Origin: Candidatus Thorarchaeota archaeon | GTDB taxonomy: Archaea; Asgardarchaeota; Thorarchaeia; Thorarchaeales; Thorarchaeaceae | NCBI GenBank assembly: GCA_018335335.1 | Contig: JAGXKG010000001.1 | Coordinates: 169,801 to 233,800 of the forward strand | DNA: 64,000 bases | Direction: 5' to 3' | Shown: positions 31,106-55,253 of the stretch, piece after piece | Layout of the letters: every line of letters begins with the position of its first letter | How positions within the stretch are numbered: position 1 is the stretch's first letter | The notes under the pieces: generated by a model | Database searches by the model: none | What the model was told of the DNA's origin: nothing | Seen by the model: the letters and a program-made list of their open reading frames with translations, nothing else | Position numbers and translations under genes: made by a program

Positions 31106-31603
31106 TCATGCAGCTATTTTTACCATACCTTGAAGACCCTTGACTAACAATTTGTAACCGTGTAATCTCTGCTTAGGATCAATTGCTACCATCCCATAAG
31201 TAGGAACATCAAGCAAATCCTGCACAGATTCTGGACGCATGGCATCTGGAAGATCCTGTTTGTTTGCAATTGCTATGACCTGTTTGTCGCCGAGTAAATT
31301 GCTGTATTTGTGCAGCAGCTGCCTAGTTTTCAGTACTGCTTTGGGGTTACTCTCCGTGACGACGACAACCATTTCACTACCTTGCATAAAATCCGGCCAC
31401 ATGAATTCGAAATGCTTCTGACCGCCCATTTCTACTAGGGTTACTTTTGTAGTACTATCAAGAGTTATTGTGCCACAGTCCATGCCCGCTGTTGGTTTGT
31501 AGTTAGAGTCCAATTTCTGGGAATTATTATCGGTAAGAAGCCGAATGAGAGTTGATTTACCCGCATACCCGGGCCCCATGAGGGCGACTTTAACGTACTT
31601 CAT
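31106..31603 (-). CDS. Small GTPase, Arf/Arl-like flavour
   Basis: P-loop GPGYAGKST, switch-I Thr region KPTAGMDCGTI, G3 as EMGGQ followed by a Trp 7 residues later (the Arf-family DVGGQ...W pattern), and G4 NKQD. Size 165 aa. Confidence 0.55.
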   Translation of the reverse strand: MKYVKVALMGPGYAGKSTLIRLLTDNNSQKLDSNYKPTAGMDCGTITLDSTTKVTLVEMGGQKHFEFMWPDFMQGSEMVVVVTESNPKAVLKTRQLLHKYSNLLGDKQVIAIANKQDLPDAMRPESVQDLLDVPTYGMVAIDPKQRLHGYKLLVKGLQGMVKIAA

Positions 31604-42498: not shown

Positions 42499-46363
<3,865 letters not shown>

Positions 46364-49300
46364 CTAGATCAACTCCTTTAGCCTTAGTCGGGGTGCAAGC
46401 CCTAGCGACATCATTTCTTGGCAGAGCAATTTGAAAGCATATGATACAACAACTCTACTTACCTTTGCATCCGAACCGCAAATCGGGCAGTAGTAGCTAT
46501 CACGGTTACGGTCATATACGCCAATCAGGCCGCATTCTTCACAGACAAGCATTGTGCTCCTGTCTGATTCCTCAAGGAGACGACCTTTGAGAAGCATTGC
46601 AGCACCATGTCCGATAAGTACATCTCGTTCCATCTCTCCAAAACGAAGACCTCCTTCGCGAGCACGACCTTCCGTTGGCTGCCTAGTGAGAATCTGTACA
46701 GGGCCTCGTGCACGAGCATGGATTTTGTCCGCAACCATGTGATGGAGTTTCTGATAATAGATTACTCCGAGAAAAATATCGGTCTTGAGCTTTTCACCCG
46801 TTACTCCAGAGTACATGGTCTCGCGGCCATTATGCTGGAATCCATGTTCCTTGAGGGTTTCAAATAGCTCTTCCTCTGTCACTCCGCAGAAGGGAGTAGC
46901 ATCTTTCTGTCGACCTTCGACTGAAGACGCTTTTCCAGCAATCATTTCGAGGATTTGTCCAATGGTCATTCTCGAAGGAATAGCATGGGGGTTAAGAACC
47001 ATATCTGGAACAATACCCTGCTCTGTGAAAGGCAAATCTTCCTGGGGAGCCAGATATCCAAGAACTCCTTTCTGGCCATGACGGGAAGCGTATTTGTCAC
47101 CAAGCTCTGGGACCCTTAGATCCCGCACCTTAACCTTCACAAGACGATTTCCATCAATTGTCTCAGTTAGAATTACGTTATCTACGACTCCTGACTCACC
47201 GTGTCTTACAGCAACAGAGGTTTCACGTCTATTTGGTGAAGTAATCTCGAACTCTGAATATTCTTCAAGGAATCGTGGAGGTGAAGTTCGTCCAATAAGA
47301 ACATCACCACCTTGAACTTCAACTTCTGTTTCAATAATACCATCTTCACCGAGATTGCGATAAGCTTCAGATGCTCGGTATCCGCGCACGCTTCTCTCAG
47401 GTATTTCAAATCGATCTTCCTGACCGCCAGGATACTTCCGTTCCTCGCTATCGTATACTCGACAGAATGTACTTCTGCTCAAACCTCTGTCAATTGAGGC
47501 CTTGTTCATAATCAAAGCATCTTCGATATTGTAGCCTTCAAATGACAGAATCGCCATGACCACGTTCTGACCTGCTGGGCGGTCTTCATAACCTATCGAA
47601 TCCATAGCTCTTGTCGTGACCAAGGGAATCTGCGGATAGTGGAAGAAATGAGAGCGGGTATCAGCACGATGATTAAAATTTGACGAGGGGACACCTATTG
47701 ATTGCTTGGCCATACCGGCCATGTATACGTTACGTGGAGACTGATTTCGTTCAGCGAAAGGTATCAAAGCTGCGGATATACCAAGGATAGTTGACGGTTC
47801 AATCTCCAAGTGGGTTGTATCAGGCCCAATATCATCGGGATACATTGCAATGAGGGCATTCTCTTCCTCCTCTGCGTCCAAGAATTCTACGAGTCCGTTT
47901 CGCATCAAGTCTTGAAACTGCCATTCTCCATCCATTACCATTCTGAGATGTTCTTTGGTCAAACGGCTCTTGCCATTCTCTACTACTATTAGTGGTCGTC
48001 TAACCCTGCCAGCATCACAGTTCACTTGAACTTCATGTGTGTTTTCATAATATGCGACGTTAGTCTCTGAGTCGATTTCGCCAGCTTGTCTTTTTTGGCG
48101 CATGGTTTTTGCTAGCACCTTAGGAGCAGCATGAACTCCAATAAGACGCCCATTCAAAAATACATCTGCCCATTTCTGGCCCCGTTTGCCCTTCAGACTT
48201 TCAATTGGTTCAACATCAGCTTGAAGGAGTACACGTTCGATTGGATCTTCGTCGGTTCCTACCGAAATGTACGCCATCATCGCAATATTCTTGACAAGAC
48301 CACAGTTAGGACCTTCGGGGGTCTCATTTGGGCATATCTTCCCCCAATGGGTAGAATGAAGGTCTCGAGCCTCAAAGTGAGGTTGTGATCGTGAAAGCGG
48401 TGAAACTACTCTGCGCAGGTGAGATAGGGAAGATATGTAGTTAGTACGATCTAGTAGTTGGGAAACTCCAGCCTTTCCCCCAACCCAATTTCCGGTAGCA
48501 AGAGCGTGCTTAAGACGTTGTGTAATAACATCTGCTCTAACCGCGGTTCTGATATTGGGTTTTCTACCGCGTGTGGCAGTTCGCTCCAGTTGATATTTTA
48601 TGTCACGATTCAAAGAGTACAATGCAACCCGGAAGAGTGACATCAGAAGGTCACCAGAGAGTTTTAGTCGCTTGTTAGCGTAATGGTCTTTGTCATCAGC
48701 CTTACGCTTGCCCAGGACAAGCTCTAGAAGACGCTCAATCATCTGTCCAAGGTAGTAAGCCTTCTGGAGACGATTCTCGGGATCAGTCCCAACGTGAGGG
48801 AGCAAATATCTGTCGAGAACCTTCTCAGCTCGCGAAAGGCGATATTCCTTTGTCTGACCAACGGCCACTCGCTTTCCAATATAGTCCAGTGCGTTGTCTT
48901 TGGTAGAAGCCTCTGGATCGTCTCTATCAGCATTTATTGGTGCAGACTGTTCAATAGTAACAATAAGCTCATTCCGGATTTCATCATCATCAGAGATGAC
49001 ATCAACAATTTCTCTGTCGGATTCCAATCCAAGAGCCTTGAGCAATATTGCCAATGGAATCTTACCTGGAACTGAGGGGAATGATGCTCTTAGTTCTCCG
49101 GTTCTTTTCCGTTCAATTGATGCTGGAGCTCTAAAGCCCCTTGATGTCGAAAATACCTTAGCAACATGAGTGTTGCTGGAGCTCTTGCTCGCCTCTTCAA
49201 TTAGAATCCTATTTGGTGCAAGATCTTCCTGGGTAACCAGTACCCGCTCAGAACCGTTAATTATGAAGTAACCTCCAGGATCCTTGGGATCTTCACCATG

Positions 49301-49738
49301 TTCGATAAGTTCTTCATCTGACATCCCGTGTAGCAGACATTTCTCACTTCGAAGCATGATTGGAAGATCGCCAACATAAATCCGGAGCGTTTCCATTCTA
49401 GTTGATACAGAGCCATCTTTCCTGACCGGTGTCATCTCGAGATACAACTTGGCCGCATAGGTCAAATCCCGGATTCTAGCTTCATTTGGATAAAGCGGAT
49501 GCTCGCTTCCATCAGCTTCTCTAATTGAGGGTTCTTGTACGGTTACATCACCAAGCTCTACATGATAGTCCTCAACCTTGGGCGTAATCTTCCCAATGTC
49601 GTCGACCACTTTCTGTAACTCTTCGTTGACAAACCTGTTGAATGAGTTAAGATGCTGACCCACCAGGCCGTAGTAGTCGAAGAAAGCCTCAATAACCGGC
49701 CAGTAATTTCCACGTTCTTTTGCGTCTAATGCAGCCAT
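46364..49738 (-). CDS. rpoB: DNA-directed RNA polymerase subunit B (unsplit)
   Basis: A single 1124-aa ORF covering both Rpb2 halves (..GQKGVLG.., ..GEMERDVLIGHGAA.., C-terminal zinc ribbon CEECGL..CPICG). It abuts rpoA' with no gap. Confidence 0.9.
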   Translation of the reverse strand: MAALDAKERGNYWPVIEAFFDYYGLVGQHLNSFNRFVNEELQKVVDDIGKITPKVEDYHVELGDVTVQEPSIREADGSEHPLYPNEARIRDLTYAAKLYLEMTPVRKDGSVSTRMETLRIYVGDLPIMLRSEKCLLHGMSDEELIEHGEDPKDPGGYFIINGSERVLVTQEDLAPNRILIEEASKSSSNTHVAKVFSTSRGFRAPASIERKRTGELRASFPSVPGKIPLAILLKALGLESDREIVDVISDDDEIRNELIVTIEQSAPINADRDDPEASTKDNALDYIGKRVAVGQTKEYRLSRAEKVLDRYLLPHVGTDPENRLQKAYYLGQMIERLLELVLGKRKADDKDHYANKRLKLSGDLLMSLFRVALYSLNRDIKYQLERTATRGRKPNIRTAVRADVITQRLKHALATGNWVGGKAGVSQLLDRTNYISSLSHLRRVVSPLSRSQPHFEARDLHSTHWGKICPNETPEGPNCGLVKNIAMMAYISVGTDEDPIERVLLQADVEPIESLKGKRGQKWADVFLNGRLIGVHAAPKVLAKTMRQKRQAGEIDSETNVAYYENTHEVQVNCDAGRVRRPLIVVENGKSRLTKEHLRMVMDGEWQFQDLMRNGLVEFLDAEEEENALIAMYPDDIGPDTTHLEIEPSTILGISAALIPFAERNQSPRNVYMAGMAKQSIGVPSSNFNHRADTRSHFFHYPQIPLVTTRAMDSIGYEDRPAGQNVVMAILSFEGYNIEDALIMNKASIDRGLSRSTFCRVYDSEERKYPGGQEDRFEIPERSVRGYRASEAYRNLGEDGIIETEVEVQGGDVLIGRTSPPRFLEEYSEFEITSPNRRETSVAVRHGESGVVDNVILTETIDGNRLVKVKVRDLRVPELGDKYASRHGQKGVLGYLAPQEDLPFTEQGIVPDMVLNPHAIPSRMTIGQILEMIAGKASSVEGRQKDATPFCGVTEEELFETLKEHGFQHNGRETMYSGVTGEKLKTDIFLGVIYYQKLHHMVADKIHARARGPVQILTRQPTEGRAREGGLRFGEMERDVLIGHGAAMLLKGRLLEESDRSTMLVCEECGLIGVYDRNRDSYYCPICGSDAKVSRVVVSYAFKLLCQEMMSLGLAPRLRLKELI

Positions 49739-49910
49739 ATTATGACACCTTTCCGAGATGGACGGGGGTACTACTGCCAGAAATCAGACTCATGCTTCCC
49801 TTCGCATGGAACCCAGAAAATCCGAGCTCGTACATTCCCAGCAATAGACGCCCCGTTGATTGTTCAGCTCTATCAGAACGCAACCGACTCCTGCTACTGC
49901 ACATGCACGA

Positions 49911-50017
49911 TGGCGGGCTCGGCGGGAGTTTCACATCTCTTGGAAACCAAGAGAGGCTTTGAACCCGCGACCCCTAGGTTAAAAGCCTATTGCGCTACCT
50001 GTCTGCGCCACGAGCCC
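49911..50017 (-). tRNA. tRNA-Lys(UUU) with a ~30-nt intron inside the T-loop (position 58-60); CCA encoded
   Basis: Read on the minus strand. Acceptor GGGCTCG / CGAGCCC. D-arm GCGC-AGACAGGTA-GCGC. Anticodon arm ATAGG-CTTTTAA-CCTAG (anticodon UUU; 27-43 is A.G). Variable GGGTC. T-stem GCGGG...CCCGC separated by 37 nt (TTCAAA-[GCCTCTCTTGGTTTCCAAGAGATGTGAAAC]-T). The insert contains an 8-bp hairpin TCTCTTGG/CCAAGAGA. Discriminator G, then CCA. Confidence 0.6.
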
Positions 50018-50338
50018 GTGCATTGCAGTAGACCATGTGCAACACAAATGACTAGATAACGATGTACACCATTATCTTGTCTTTGATGCGGCATATGGCC
50101 ATGCATGAGTGGGAAGCAATCCTGCTTGAGCATCGAACGGGAATTTTGTATGAATAAAAGATTTTCCTTAAGACAAGCTAATTTGGCATATCATCTGCTC
50201 AAATGAGGGCAATGCACTGAGAAAATATATTGTGTAGATTACAAAAAAGGGTTATGCTGATGGTTTGACAACGACAACTTTAATAGAACTCTGCAAGTGG
50301 CCCCGTTGACTCGTCCAAGTATGGACAGGTTCAGTAGT

Positions 50339-50479
50339 GCCCCGGTAGTGTAGTCTGGCCATATCTATAGAAACGGTCTATAGGTATCAGAATAGCATCC
50401 GAGACTGTCACTATCACGATGTATAGCCATCGTGTCGGCCAATCTCGGGACTCGGGTTCAACTCCCGACCGGGGCGCCA
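50339..50479 (+). tRNA. tRNA-Asp(GUC) with two introns (one near the D-loop/D-stem junction, one canonical at 37/38); CCA encoded
   Basis: Acceptor GCCCCGG / CCGGGGC. D-arm GTGT-AGTCTGGCCAT..[~32 nt, about 50363-50394, with hairpin CTATAG-AAACGGT-CTATAG]..GCAT. Anticodon arm CGAGA-CTGTCA|[31 nt, 50411-50441, hairpin CACGATG/CATCGTG]|A-TCTCG (anticodon GTC). Variable GGAC. T-arm TCGGG-TTCAACT-CCCGA. Discriminator G, then CCA. Total 138 nt, about 75 nt mature. Confidence 0.55.
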
Positions 50480-54295: not shown

Positions 54296-54402
54296 CGGGA
54301 CGTAGCTCAACCTGGCAGAGCAACGGACTGTAGTATTCGGTTCCGTTGGAATCGTTTCCAGATATCCGTCGGCTGCCGGTTCAAATCCGGCCGTCCCGAC
54401 CA
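54296..54402 (+). tRNA. tRNA-Tyr(GUA) with a 30-nt canonical (37/38) intron; CCA encoded
   Basis: Acceptor CGGGACG / CGTCCCG. D-arm GCTC-AACCTGGCA-GAGC. Anticodon arm ACGGA-CTGTAG|[intron 54334-54363]|A-TCCGT (anticodon GTA). Variable CGGCT. T-arm GCCGG-TTCAAAT-CCGGC. Discriminator A, then CCA. Confidence 0.7.
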
Positions 54403-54431: not shown

Positions 54432-55253
54432 TTAAGATGGATCAAAATAAGGAACAACTGTCATGGATGCAGATTTGTCAAAACGCCATGGCCGATCCAA
54501 GGTAACTCTCACAAAATACCAGCTAGTTATGAGGCGTGTTTTGAATGTGGGGGGAAAATCCTTTCGGGTGGGAATGCTCCAGTCAACCCATCGATTTCTC
54601 AGAATCTCTTCATCGGGTATTTCTCGTTGGTTAAGGACTCTCACCGTTCTTCGAGACCGGCCCCTTGCTCTCCGATTCTGACAATGAACAAGCTCCGCTC
54701 TAACACCACGGATCTCAATCTCATCAGGTACCCTGAACTGGAAGGGTATTCCATCTCCAAGACGGACAGAAGTTTCATCGAGCCGAAGTTCCAATACAGG
54801 ATTTCCTTTATGTTTAGCAGCCGCTCTATGTGCAGCGGTTGTTGCTCTAGCACCCGGCGAAAATACCCAAAATTCCTTCTGGTTTTCACAGTCAAAGGCC
54901 CATGAAATCGCAGCTTTAGCTTCAATCCAGTATTTGACTTGAGCTCCAGTTCCTTTGTAAGTTGGGGGTAATCCCATTGGTAGCGTAAAAGAGAAATCTA
55001 TGGGTGTCTTTCCAGCCCCAAACCGGGTTACGGTATTGACATCCAACTGGTGTTCAACAAGTTTTGTGGATCCTCTATATGTGCGCCGATCGTCTCCGTT
55101 ACCAACTGTGATACGGGTCCGTTCGGAACCGCGAACAAATACGGTGAAATCCTCACACTCAAAGAACTCATCAGTATGAACTGTAACAGTACCATTTACT
55201 TGCCGGCCAGCAAGATAGGCTTCCCTGTTCAGCTCGATATGTACTTCCCGCAC
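54432..55253 (-). CDS. Arrestin-N / SpoOM-like beta-sandwich protein
   Basis: Two internal repeats with the SpoOM/arrestin-N pattern: HIELNREAYLAGRQVNGTVTVHTDEFFECEDFTVFVRGSERTRITV and VLELRLDETSVRLGDGIPFQFRVPDEIEIRGVRAELVHCQ. Size 273 aa. Confidence 0.4.
   Translation of the reverse strand: MREVHIELNREAYLAGRQVNGTVTVHTDEFFECEDFTVFVRGSERTRITVGNGDDRRTYRGSTKLVEHQLDVNTVTRFGAGKTPIDFSFTLPMGLPPTYKGTGAQVKYWIEAKAAISWAFDCENQKEFWVFSPGARATTAAHRAAAKHKGNPVLELRLDETSVRLGDGIPFQFRVPDEIEIRGVRAELVHCQNRRARGRSRRTVRVLNQREIPDEEILRNRWVDWSIPTRKDFPPTFKTRLITSWYFVRVTLDRPWRFDKSASMTVVPYFDPS

Follow-up and report, generated by a model that had tools for sequence, protein, structure and literature searches.

What stands ahead of rpoB in a Thorarchaeota genome, at the place where rpoH is usually found, and how could a tRNA gene that is interrupted within its T arm yield a functional tRNA? 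The gene that raises this question lies on the minus strand of the 64-kb stretch of DNA analyzed here (the window) and reads, from 50017, GGGCUCG UG GCGC AGACAGGUA GCGC A AUAGG CUUUUAA CCUAG GGGUC GCGGG, followed down to 49911 by UUCAAAGCCUCUCUUGGUUUCCAAGAGAUGUGAAACU CCCGC CGAGCCC G CCA. On this strand, the 37 nt of UUCAAAGCCUCUCUUGGUUUCCAAGAGAUGUGAAACU stand between GCGGG and CCCGC, the two strands of the T stem, just as a sequence-only reading of the same DNA had described, where an uninterrupted T arm would have 7 nt. Apart from this insert, the gene has its acceptor arm, D arm, and anticodon arm, a variable loop of 5 nt, and a T stem of 5 bp, exon 1 running from the acceptor 5′ strand through the D arm, anticodon arm, variable loop, and T-stem 5′ strand to UUCAAA. 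The conserved tRNA bases (U8, A14, G18G19, G53, U54U55C56, and C61, with U33 in an anticodon loop of 7 nt) were found as well. The host is affiliated with Thorarchaeota by its RpoB, the first 300 residues of which are 97% identical to those of a Thorarchaeota MAG (L001) and 74–86% identical to those of about 50 other Thorarchaeota loci; the window also encodes an archaeal SRP RNA.

The identity of the gene as tRNA-Lys(UUU), proposed in the sequence-only reading, is borne out by the anticodon UUU read in exon 1 and by ARAGORN, which calls the 77-nt product of in silico splicing tRNA-Lys(ttt). The unspliced gene, in contrast, is not called by ARAGORN in the raw window, nor is the precursor when the intron option (which handles introns of the anticodon loop only) is switched on. 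Against the Rfam tRNA family the unspliced gene scores 29.7 bits, barely at the threshold, and only its 5′ two-thirds (49960–50017) are aligned, with a false acceptor 3′ strand placed inside the T arm. Two intron-free orthologues scanned in the same manner (L012 and L050) score 69 bits. Because ARAGORN returns nothing and the Rfam match is partial, routine annotation would miss or truncate this tRNA-Lys. The precursor is nevertheless strongly structured, with a fold of -47 kcal/mol (z = -3.1) that none of 200 shuffled sequences equaled. Furthermore, a tRNA-Lys(UUU) on the same strand, 230–290 nt before the rpoB match, was found in about 50 Thorarchaeota loci, that is, in every Thorarchaeota locus that reaches far enough upstream. 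That the gene recurs in one syntenic position in about 50 independently assembled Thorarchaeota genomes indicates that it is neither a chance resemblance nor an assembly artifact. The features of the locus and its surroundings are collected in Table 1.

Table 1. Features of the tRNA-Lys(UUU) locus and of other parts of the window (positions are those of the window; cut sites, helices, and the promoter-like box are predictions from sequence).
Feature	Position	Strand	Basis or remark
Whole tRNA-Lys(UUU) gene, 107 nt	49911..50017	-	sequence read; ARAGORN on spliced product
Exon 1 (tRNA positions 1–59)	49958..50017	-	acceptor 5′ strand through UUCAAA
Anticodon UUU	49981-49983	-	within exon 1
Exon 2	49911..49927	-	U60, CCCGC (T-stem 3′), CGAGCCC (acceptor 3′), discriminator G, CCA
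CCA end, genomically encoded	49911-49913	-	
Predicted 30-nt intron, G CCUCUCUUGGUUUCCAAGAGAUG UGAA AC, between tRNA positions 59 and 60	49928..49957	-	hBHBh′ geometry
Central BHB helix, exon strand UUCA (T-loop 54–57)	49960..49963	-	pairs with 49930-49933
Central BHB helix, intron strand UGAA	49930..49933	-	base-by-base motif check
5′ bulge AA/G, predicted cut after second base (5′ splice site)	49957..49959	-	
3′ bulge AC/U, predicted cut after second base (3′ splice site)	49927..49929	-	
Inner helix: C-G, C.U mismatch, 8 bp UCUCUUGG/CCAAGAGA, loop UUU	49934..49956	-	
Conserved RNA-like element (model R1), 90–100 nt, in the tRNA-rpoB gap	49758..49858	-	covariance model
Invariant R1 core CCAUGCG-AA-GGGAAGCA	49793-49809	-	complementary to leader block
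Leader block UGCUUCCC-ACUCA-UGCAUGG	50099..50118	-	about 80–100 nt upstream of tRNA
CUUUUAU box, invariant in 27/27 aligned sequences	50154..50160	-	about 35 nt upstream of leader block
GGUG Shine-Dalgarno-like motif before rpoB	49746-49749	-	
rpoB, 1124 aa, unsplit	46364..49738	-	
rpoA′	43685-46363	-	downstream of rpoB
rpoA″	42499-43680	-	downstream of rpoA′
tRNA-Asp(GUC), very likely, 141 nt	50339-50479	+	acceptor GCCCCGG/CCGGGGC, T arm, CCA end
tRNA with anticodon-loop intron, anticodon GUA (Tyr) by eye	54296-54399	+	Rfam 58 bits
Eukaryote-like proteins: small Arf/Ras-family GTPase; arrestin-domain protein	31106-31603; 54432-55253	-	Asgard-typical

In our motif analysis, the insert and its flanks can be drawn as a complete hBHBh′ structure. 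All five pairs of the outer helix (the T stem GCGGG/CCCGC) and all four of the central helix form, as do nine of the ten in the inner helix, and there are two 3-nt bulges, AAG and ACU. The 8-bp hairpin that the sequence-only reading had noticed in the insert is present as UCUCUUGG/CCAAGAGA and forms most of the inner helix, which is slightly relaxed by a C.U mismatch after its first pair. When the 30-nt insert was shuffled, none of 200,000 shuffles combined a full central helix (4/4) with nine or more of the ten inner pairs. In energy, the BHB conformer is 2.7 kcal/mol higher than the local minimum-free-energy fold, which does not contain the central helix of 4 bp; minimum-free-energy folds usually miss this helix, as the 3-nt bulges are penalised. 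The archaeal BHB motif is defined as a 4-bp helix between two 3-nt bulges (PMC4090602). For the splice sites we took each bulge to lie on the 3′ side of its central-helix strand and to be cut after its second base. This rule, derived from canonical 37/38 introns, restores the anticodon loop CUUUUAA when applied to two relatives with such an intron, L015 and L017 (see PMC4090602). Cuts made in this way give a mature T-loop UUCAAAU and locate the intron at 59/60, a documented non-canonical position (PMC4090602). A strict BHB scan, which demands at least two contiguous inner pairs, misses the 59/60 site and returns spurious ones because the inner helix opens with one base pair and then a mismatch, whereas an anchored check finds it. 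A valid motif thus exists at the inferred junctions, and the objection that there might be none, which the sequence-only reading had itself raised as fatal to an intron, falls away.

That reading had left two T-loops in play after removal of 30 nt, TTCAAAT and TTCAACT, and the second corresponds to a real intron spliced in another register (57/58 or 58/59). The ambiguity is genuine in that the run of A at the 5′ junction permits alternative 30-nt deletions, the products of which ARAGORN also accepts as tRNA-Lys, and one relative (L044) seems to have its T-loop intron at about 58/59. Nevertheless, 59/60 is the only register in which a 4-bp helix separates two 3-nt bulges and each bulge is cut behind its second base. 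The intron-free orthologues (n = 9: L006, L007, L012, L016, L021, L026–28, and L050), which lack exactly the stretch that corresponds to 49928–49957, point in the same direction: seven of them carry GCGGG-UUCAAAU-CCCGC, L012 has UUCGAAU, and L007 is cut at its 5′ end, so that U60 is found in 8/9 and UUCAACU in 0/9. The bulge geometry and the seven orthologues together settle the loop as UUCAAAU in RNA terms (TTCAAAT in the DNA), and we regard another register as very improbable.

We then compared the intron states of this orthologue across the phylum. A 59/60 insert of 29–30 nt is present in the window and in 11 other loci (L001, L003–5, L018, L022, L041, L046, L047, L049, and L057); the motif was verified base by base in ten of these orthologues and by eye in L057. 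In all ten, which come from different Thorarchaeota lineages, the outer helix has its 5 bp, three or four of the four central pairs form, and an inner helix is present together with the two 3-nt bulges. In sequence, the inner helices are unlike one another, with six unrelated sequences (CCUCUCUUGG, GAUCACGAGA, GACGC, AAGCGCGAG, AACCCC, and GGCGU) among the 11 59/60 introns checked. Conserved geometry combined with such turnover of sequence is the pattern expected if only the structure recognized by the endonuclease is under selection, and it constitutes strong comparative support for splicing.

The same comparison bears on the idea of a tRNA pseudogene in decay, or of a tRNA-like leader element, whose T-loop took up a chance insertion and which is not spliced at all. 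Such decay would agree with the failure of standard tRNA finders, with an Rfam score barely at threshold, and with the location of the gene inside what appears to be an mRNA leader. The four stems and the conserved tRNA bases are, however, intact, and the gene is retained at this locus throughout the phylum with compensatory changes; for instance, pair 28:42 is C-G in the orthologues and U-A in the window, by which the anticodon stem is preserved, and the neighboring 27:43 is an A.G mismatch in the window and G.A in the orthologues. Chance inserts, as modeled by the shuffles, fail to give the BHB pairing, and the BHB geometry is held in 11 sequences in spite of a complete turnover of the insert. 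Decay is therefore still harder to credit than a shifted register. Least credible of all is that the insert is a mobile-element remnant or a self-splicing group I/II intron independent of the endonuclease: inserts do occur at five or more positions of the orthologous gene across the phylum, and tRNA introns of Thermoproteales are thought to transpose (PMC4090602), which counts for mobility, but 30 nt is far below a ribozyme intron (the core of which needs at least about 200 nt) or a coding element, no group I/II intron family of Rfam matches, there are no terminal repeats, and the BHB features are the sole conservation.

The orthologue is not limited to the 59/60 and intron-free states. A 37/38 intron occurs in L015, L017, L020, and L023; L013 has introns at 37/38 and 53/54, and L044, by hand analysis, at 37/38 and about 58/59. 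In about 23 loci there is an insert of 29–32 nt in the variable region, which fits only a relaxed motif at about 43/44 (central helix 3/4, no outer helix); splicing at 43/44 would give products identical to the nearest intron-free relatives, and in L014 a perfect central helix would instead imply a variable loop of 7 nt. The tRNA-Lys(UUU) orthologue thus shows at least six intron states in the phylum, with inserts at no fewer than five positions. On a neighbor-joining RpoB tree, loci with the 59/60 state are dispersed over the lineages that branch off early, and those with the variable-region insert make up one large derived clade. As far as a rough and quick tree goes, this suggests that the 59/60 intron is old and that losses and replacements came later. 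As a separate observation, the stem of the window intron, UCUCUUG...CAAGAGA (49934–49956, minus strand), and the stem of the variable-region insert, CAAGAGAG...UCUCUUG (e.g., L008:5733-5841), are made of the same two 7-mers, each placed in the opposite arm; the resemblance may be accidental or may reflect a common origin.

In view of the above, it is very probable that this is a functional Thorarchaeota tRNA-Lys(UUU) gene with one non-canonical BHB intron of 30 nt at 59/60. Before splicing, the 5-bp T stem would run into the 4-bp helix formed by U54-A57 with the intron UGAA, flanked by the bulges AAG and ACU and followed by the intron hairpin. The splicing endonuclease EndA would cut each bulge behind its second base, a ligase of the RtcB type would join the exons at a junction predicted to read GCGGGUUCAAA/UCCCGC, thereby completing the T-loop UUCAAAU, and the intron would be released, probably as a circle. 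The ends would be trimmed by RNase P and RNase Z, and the modifications of the T-loop and its tertiary contacts with the D-loop would presumably become possible only after splicing. No ORF annotated in the 64-kb window encodes EndA or RtcB, so their presence in this genome is taken from the literature on the phylum. Asgard archaea, including a Thorarchaeote, are reported to have an (alpha-beta)2 EndA whose L1 loop confers a broad substrate range (PMC5829648).

The second part of the question concerns the place of the gene. Downstream of the tRNA follow rpoB, rpoA′, rpoA″, a NusA-like KH protein, S12, S7, and EF-1alpha. In 22 loci outside Thorarchaeota that were recovered in the same search (from Baldr-, Odin- and Hodarchaeales, Thermoproteota, Thermococci, and others), rpoH (Rpb5 C-terminal domain, PF01191) lies directly 5′ of rpoB, with E-values of 1e-34 to 1e-41. 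An HMM profile built from these 22 RpoH sequences gave a best E-value of only 0.9 over the six-frame ORFs of the 64-kb window and all Thorarchaeota loci, and tBLASTn with M. jannaschii and S. solfataricus RpoH queries did not find rpoH in the window. In a protein search with a Baldrarchaeota RpoH, none of the best 120 of 705 hits bore a Thorarchaeota name. The observation that the gene sits in the usual place of rpoH was thus correct, and in these sequence comparisons it holds phylum-wide in Thorarchaeota; the "replacing" of the sequence-only reading goes further and is an evolutionary inference. A 2026 paper gives for Thorarchaeota an Rpo5 accession number about 440 away from those of Rpo1, whereas in its examples from Bathyarchaeota, Thaumarchaeota, and Methanocellales the Rpo5 and Rpo1 accession numbers are adjacent (PMC13257274). 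Judged by this indirect evidence, rpoH of Thorarchaeota has probably been relocated rather than lost. Three Heimdallarchaeota-like loci (L060, L061, and L080) also have no rpoH within 6 kb 5′ of rpoB, which indicates that loss of the rpoH-rpoB linkage is not limited to Thorarchaeota; at rpoB these three loci have neither the tRNA nor the Thorarchaeota element described below.

Besides the tRNA, the rpoH slot holds a second conserved feature, an RNA-like element (R1) that lies outside the tRNA. With the covariance model, R1 was found in 49 loci and the window at 60–110 bits, once per Thorarchaeota locus and always directly 5′ of rpoB (e.g., L014:4014-4107 and L002:5887-5977); the model found neither a second copy within a locus nor any copy in the non-Thorarchaeota loci. 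The consensus, ACGGGGCGGCUAUUGC...GAGCUCGGAUUUCUGGGUUC CAUGCGUUGGGAAGCGU...GCAGUAGUUCCCCCGUCC, likely forms a closing helix and a hairpin of 8 bp, and it has no Rfam match at E ≤ 10. Small ORFs were rejected as an explanation of the conserved blocks around the tRNA, since indels of 1–2 nt break the reading frame, and by inspection the blocks did not fit 5S rRNA, H/ACA or C/D RNA, a K-turn, or an r-protein operator mimic.

The invariant core of R1 and the leader block on the other side of the tRNA are complementary over 8 bp plus 7 bp, so that the tRNA is enclosed. RNAalifold, applied to 27 full-length regions, selects this long-range stem, and 96% of the cells of the alignment pair, as compared with 35–53% when the partners are slid by 1–3 columns. 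One pair of the stem alternates between A-U (11), G-C (9), and G.U (4), and the G.U pairs indicate that the strand of rpoB is the RNA strand; the covariation is otherwise modest, as the blocks are so conserved. A second possible pairing of the leader, UCCCGUU/AACGGGG, would cross this stem. Further upstream, the CUUUUAU box has a purine-rich 5′ flank and is a candidate archaeal TATA/BRE promoter for a tRNA-rpoB transcript, and the alignment of 27 sequences contains no comparable conserved box between the tRNA and rpoB. Conservation of this kind suggests, as its simplest reading, that tRNA-Lys is co-transcribed with rpoB inside a leader-trailer stem. By the modeled structures, the long-range stem would compete with the local R1 hairpin and would be pseudoknotted with the closing helix of R1; conceivably, the hairpin and the long-range stem may be alternative states before and after excision of the tRNA.

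If so, a transcript driven from the CUUUUAU box would consist of a leader, the intron-containing tRNA, the element of about 100 nt, and rpoB-rpoA′-rpoA″ in this order, and the start of its leader, UGCUUCCC...UGCAUGG, would pair with CCAUGCG..GGGAAGCA around the tRNA. We put forward only tentatively, and consider it rather unlikely in its full form, that the RNA polymerase operon has tRNA-Lys as its first cistron and that excision of the tRNA, perhaps also its splicing, remodels the 5′ UTR of rpoB. Were this true, an RNA element absent from all current family libraries would tie tRNA processing to the synthesis of RNA polymerase.

Other tRNA genes of the window are interrupted as well. A region on the plus strand, missed by both ARAGORN and Rfam, is very likely a tRNA-Asp(GUC) with two inserts, one of about 32 nt in the D-loop, which has a good BHB motif (central helix 4/4), and one of about 31 nt in the anticodon loop. 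The tRNA-Asp of L001 has the same two-insert arrangement, whereas the relatives from Baldr- and Odinarchaeota have the anticodon-loop intron only. Two copies of the 10-mer GCCCCGUUGA are present on the plus strand, at 50300–50309 and 49849–49858; one copy is the reversed start of R1 and the other stands 30 nt before tRNA-Asp, which may be chance.

As 59/60 introns and a broad-specificity Asgard EndA are already published, the intron is of a known kind and would not surprise a specialist. Taken alone, the finding matters mainly for annotation, since a genome of this group would seem to be devoid of tRNA-Lys(UUU) when the common tRNA finders miss the gene. The series of intron states at one locus (59/60, 58/59, 53/54, 37/38, variable region, and none) over about 50 genomes is, in addition, a clean natural series on the gain, loss, and movement of archaeal tRNA introns in the closest prokaryotic relatives of eukaryotes. 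The conserved leader-trailer structure around the tRNA, ahead of the RNA polymerase genes, is a candidate for a new regulatory or processing RNA.

Several known systems can be set beside this locus. The canonical archaeal cluster is rpoH-rpoB-rpoA′-rpoA″-L30e-nusA-S12-S7 (PMC10833476). Compared with it, the downstream order is kept in the window, while rpoH at the head is gone and a tRNA and a conserved non-coding element stand in its place. Genes of tRNAs are co-transcribed with a protein-coding gene in the E. coli operon thrU-tyrU-glyT-thrT-tufB, and the present locus is similar in that the tRNA lies 5′ of a housekeeping operon, on the same strand, with no conserved promoter box in between. 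In archaeal rRNA processing stems, leader and trailer pair, and here too leader and trailer blocks pair around an embedded RNA, although, unlike in the rRNA stems, no BHB is visible in the long-range stem of the window. With regard to the intron itself, non-canonical tRNA introns of Crenarchaeota were reportedly described by Marck and Grosjean in 2003 and by Sugahara and co-workers in 2008. Crenarchaeota, and Thermoproteales especially, carry non-canonical BHB introns at positions such as 53/54, 56/57, and 59/60 (PMC4090602). The window intron resembles them in its 4-bp helix with two 3-nt bulges, its position at 59/60, and its short length, and the genome resembles theirs in having further intron-bearing tRNAs (in the window, one intron in tRNA-Tyr and two in tRNA-Asp). 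It differs from the crenarchaeal T-loop introns as first described in that its host is an Asgard archaeon of the Thorarchaeota, and its motif is a strict hBHBh′, whereas the crenarchaeal non-canonical sites are often relaxed (hBH or HBh′). Within Asgard archaea, non-canonical and multiple tRNA introns are on record in genomes that include Thorarchaeota SMTZ1-83 (Kaneta et al., 2018, PMC5829648) and in Atabeyarchaeia and Freyarchaeia (Valentin-Alvarado et al., 2024, PMC11291895), with 92–95% of the tRNA genes bearing introns in three Asgard genomes (PMC11291895). The window shares with these published cases the superphylum, the intron class, and presumably the (alpha-beta)2 EndA with its L1 loop. 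In essence, the published Asgard work consists of genome-wide counts, whereas here one syntenic orthologue is followed through about 50 genomes, with introns at five or more sites as well as an intron-free state.
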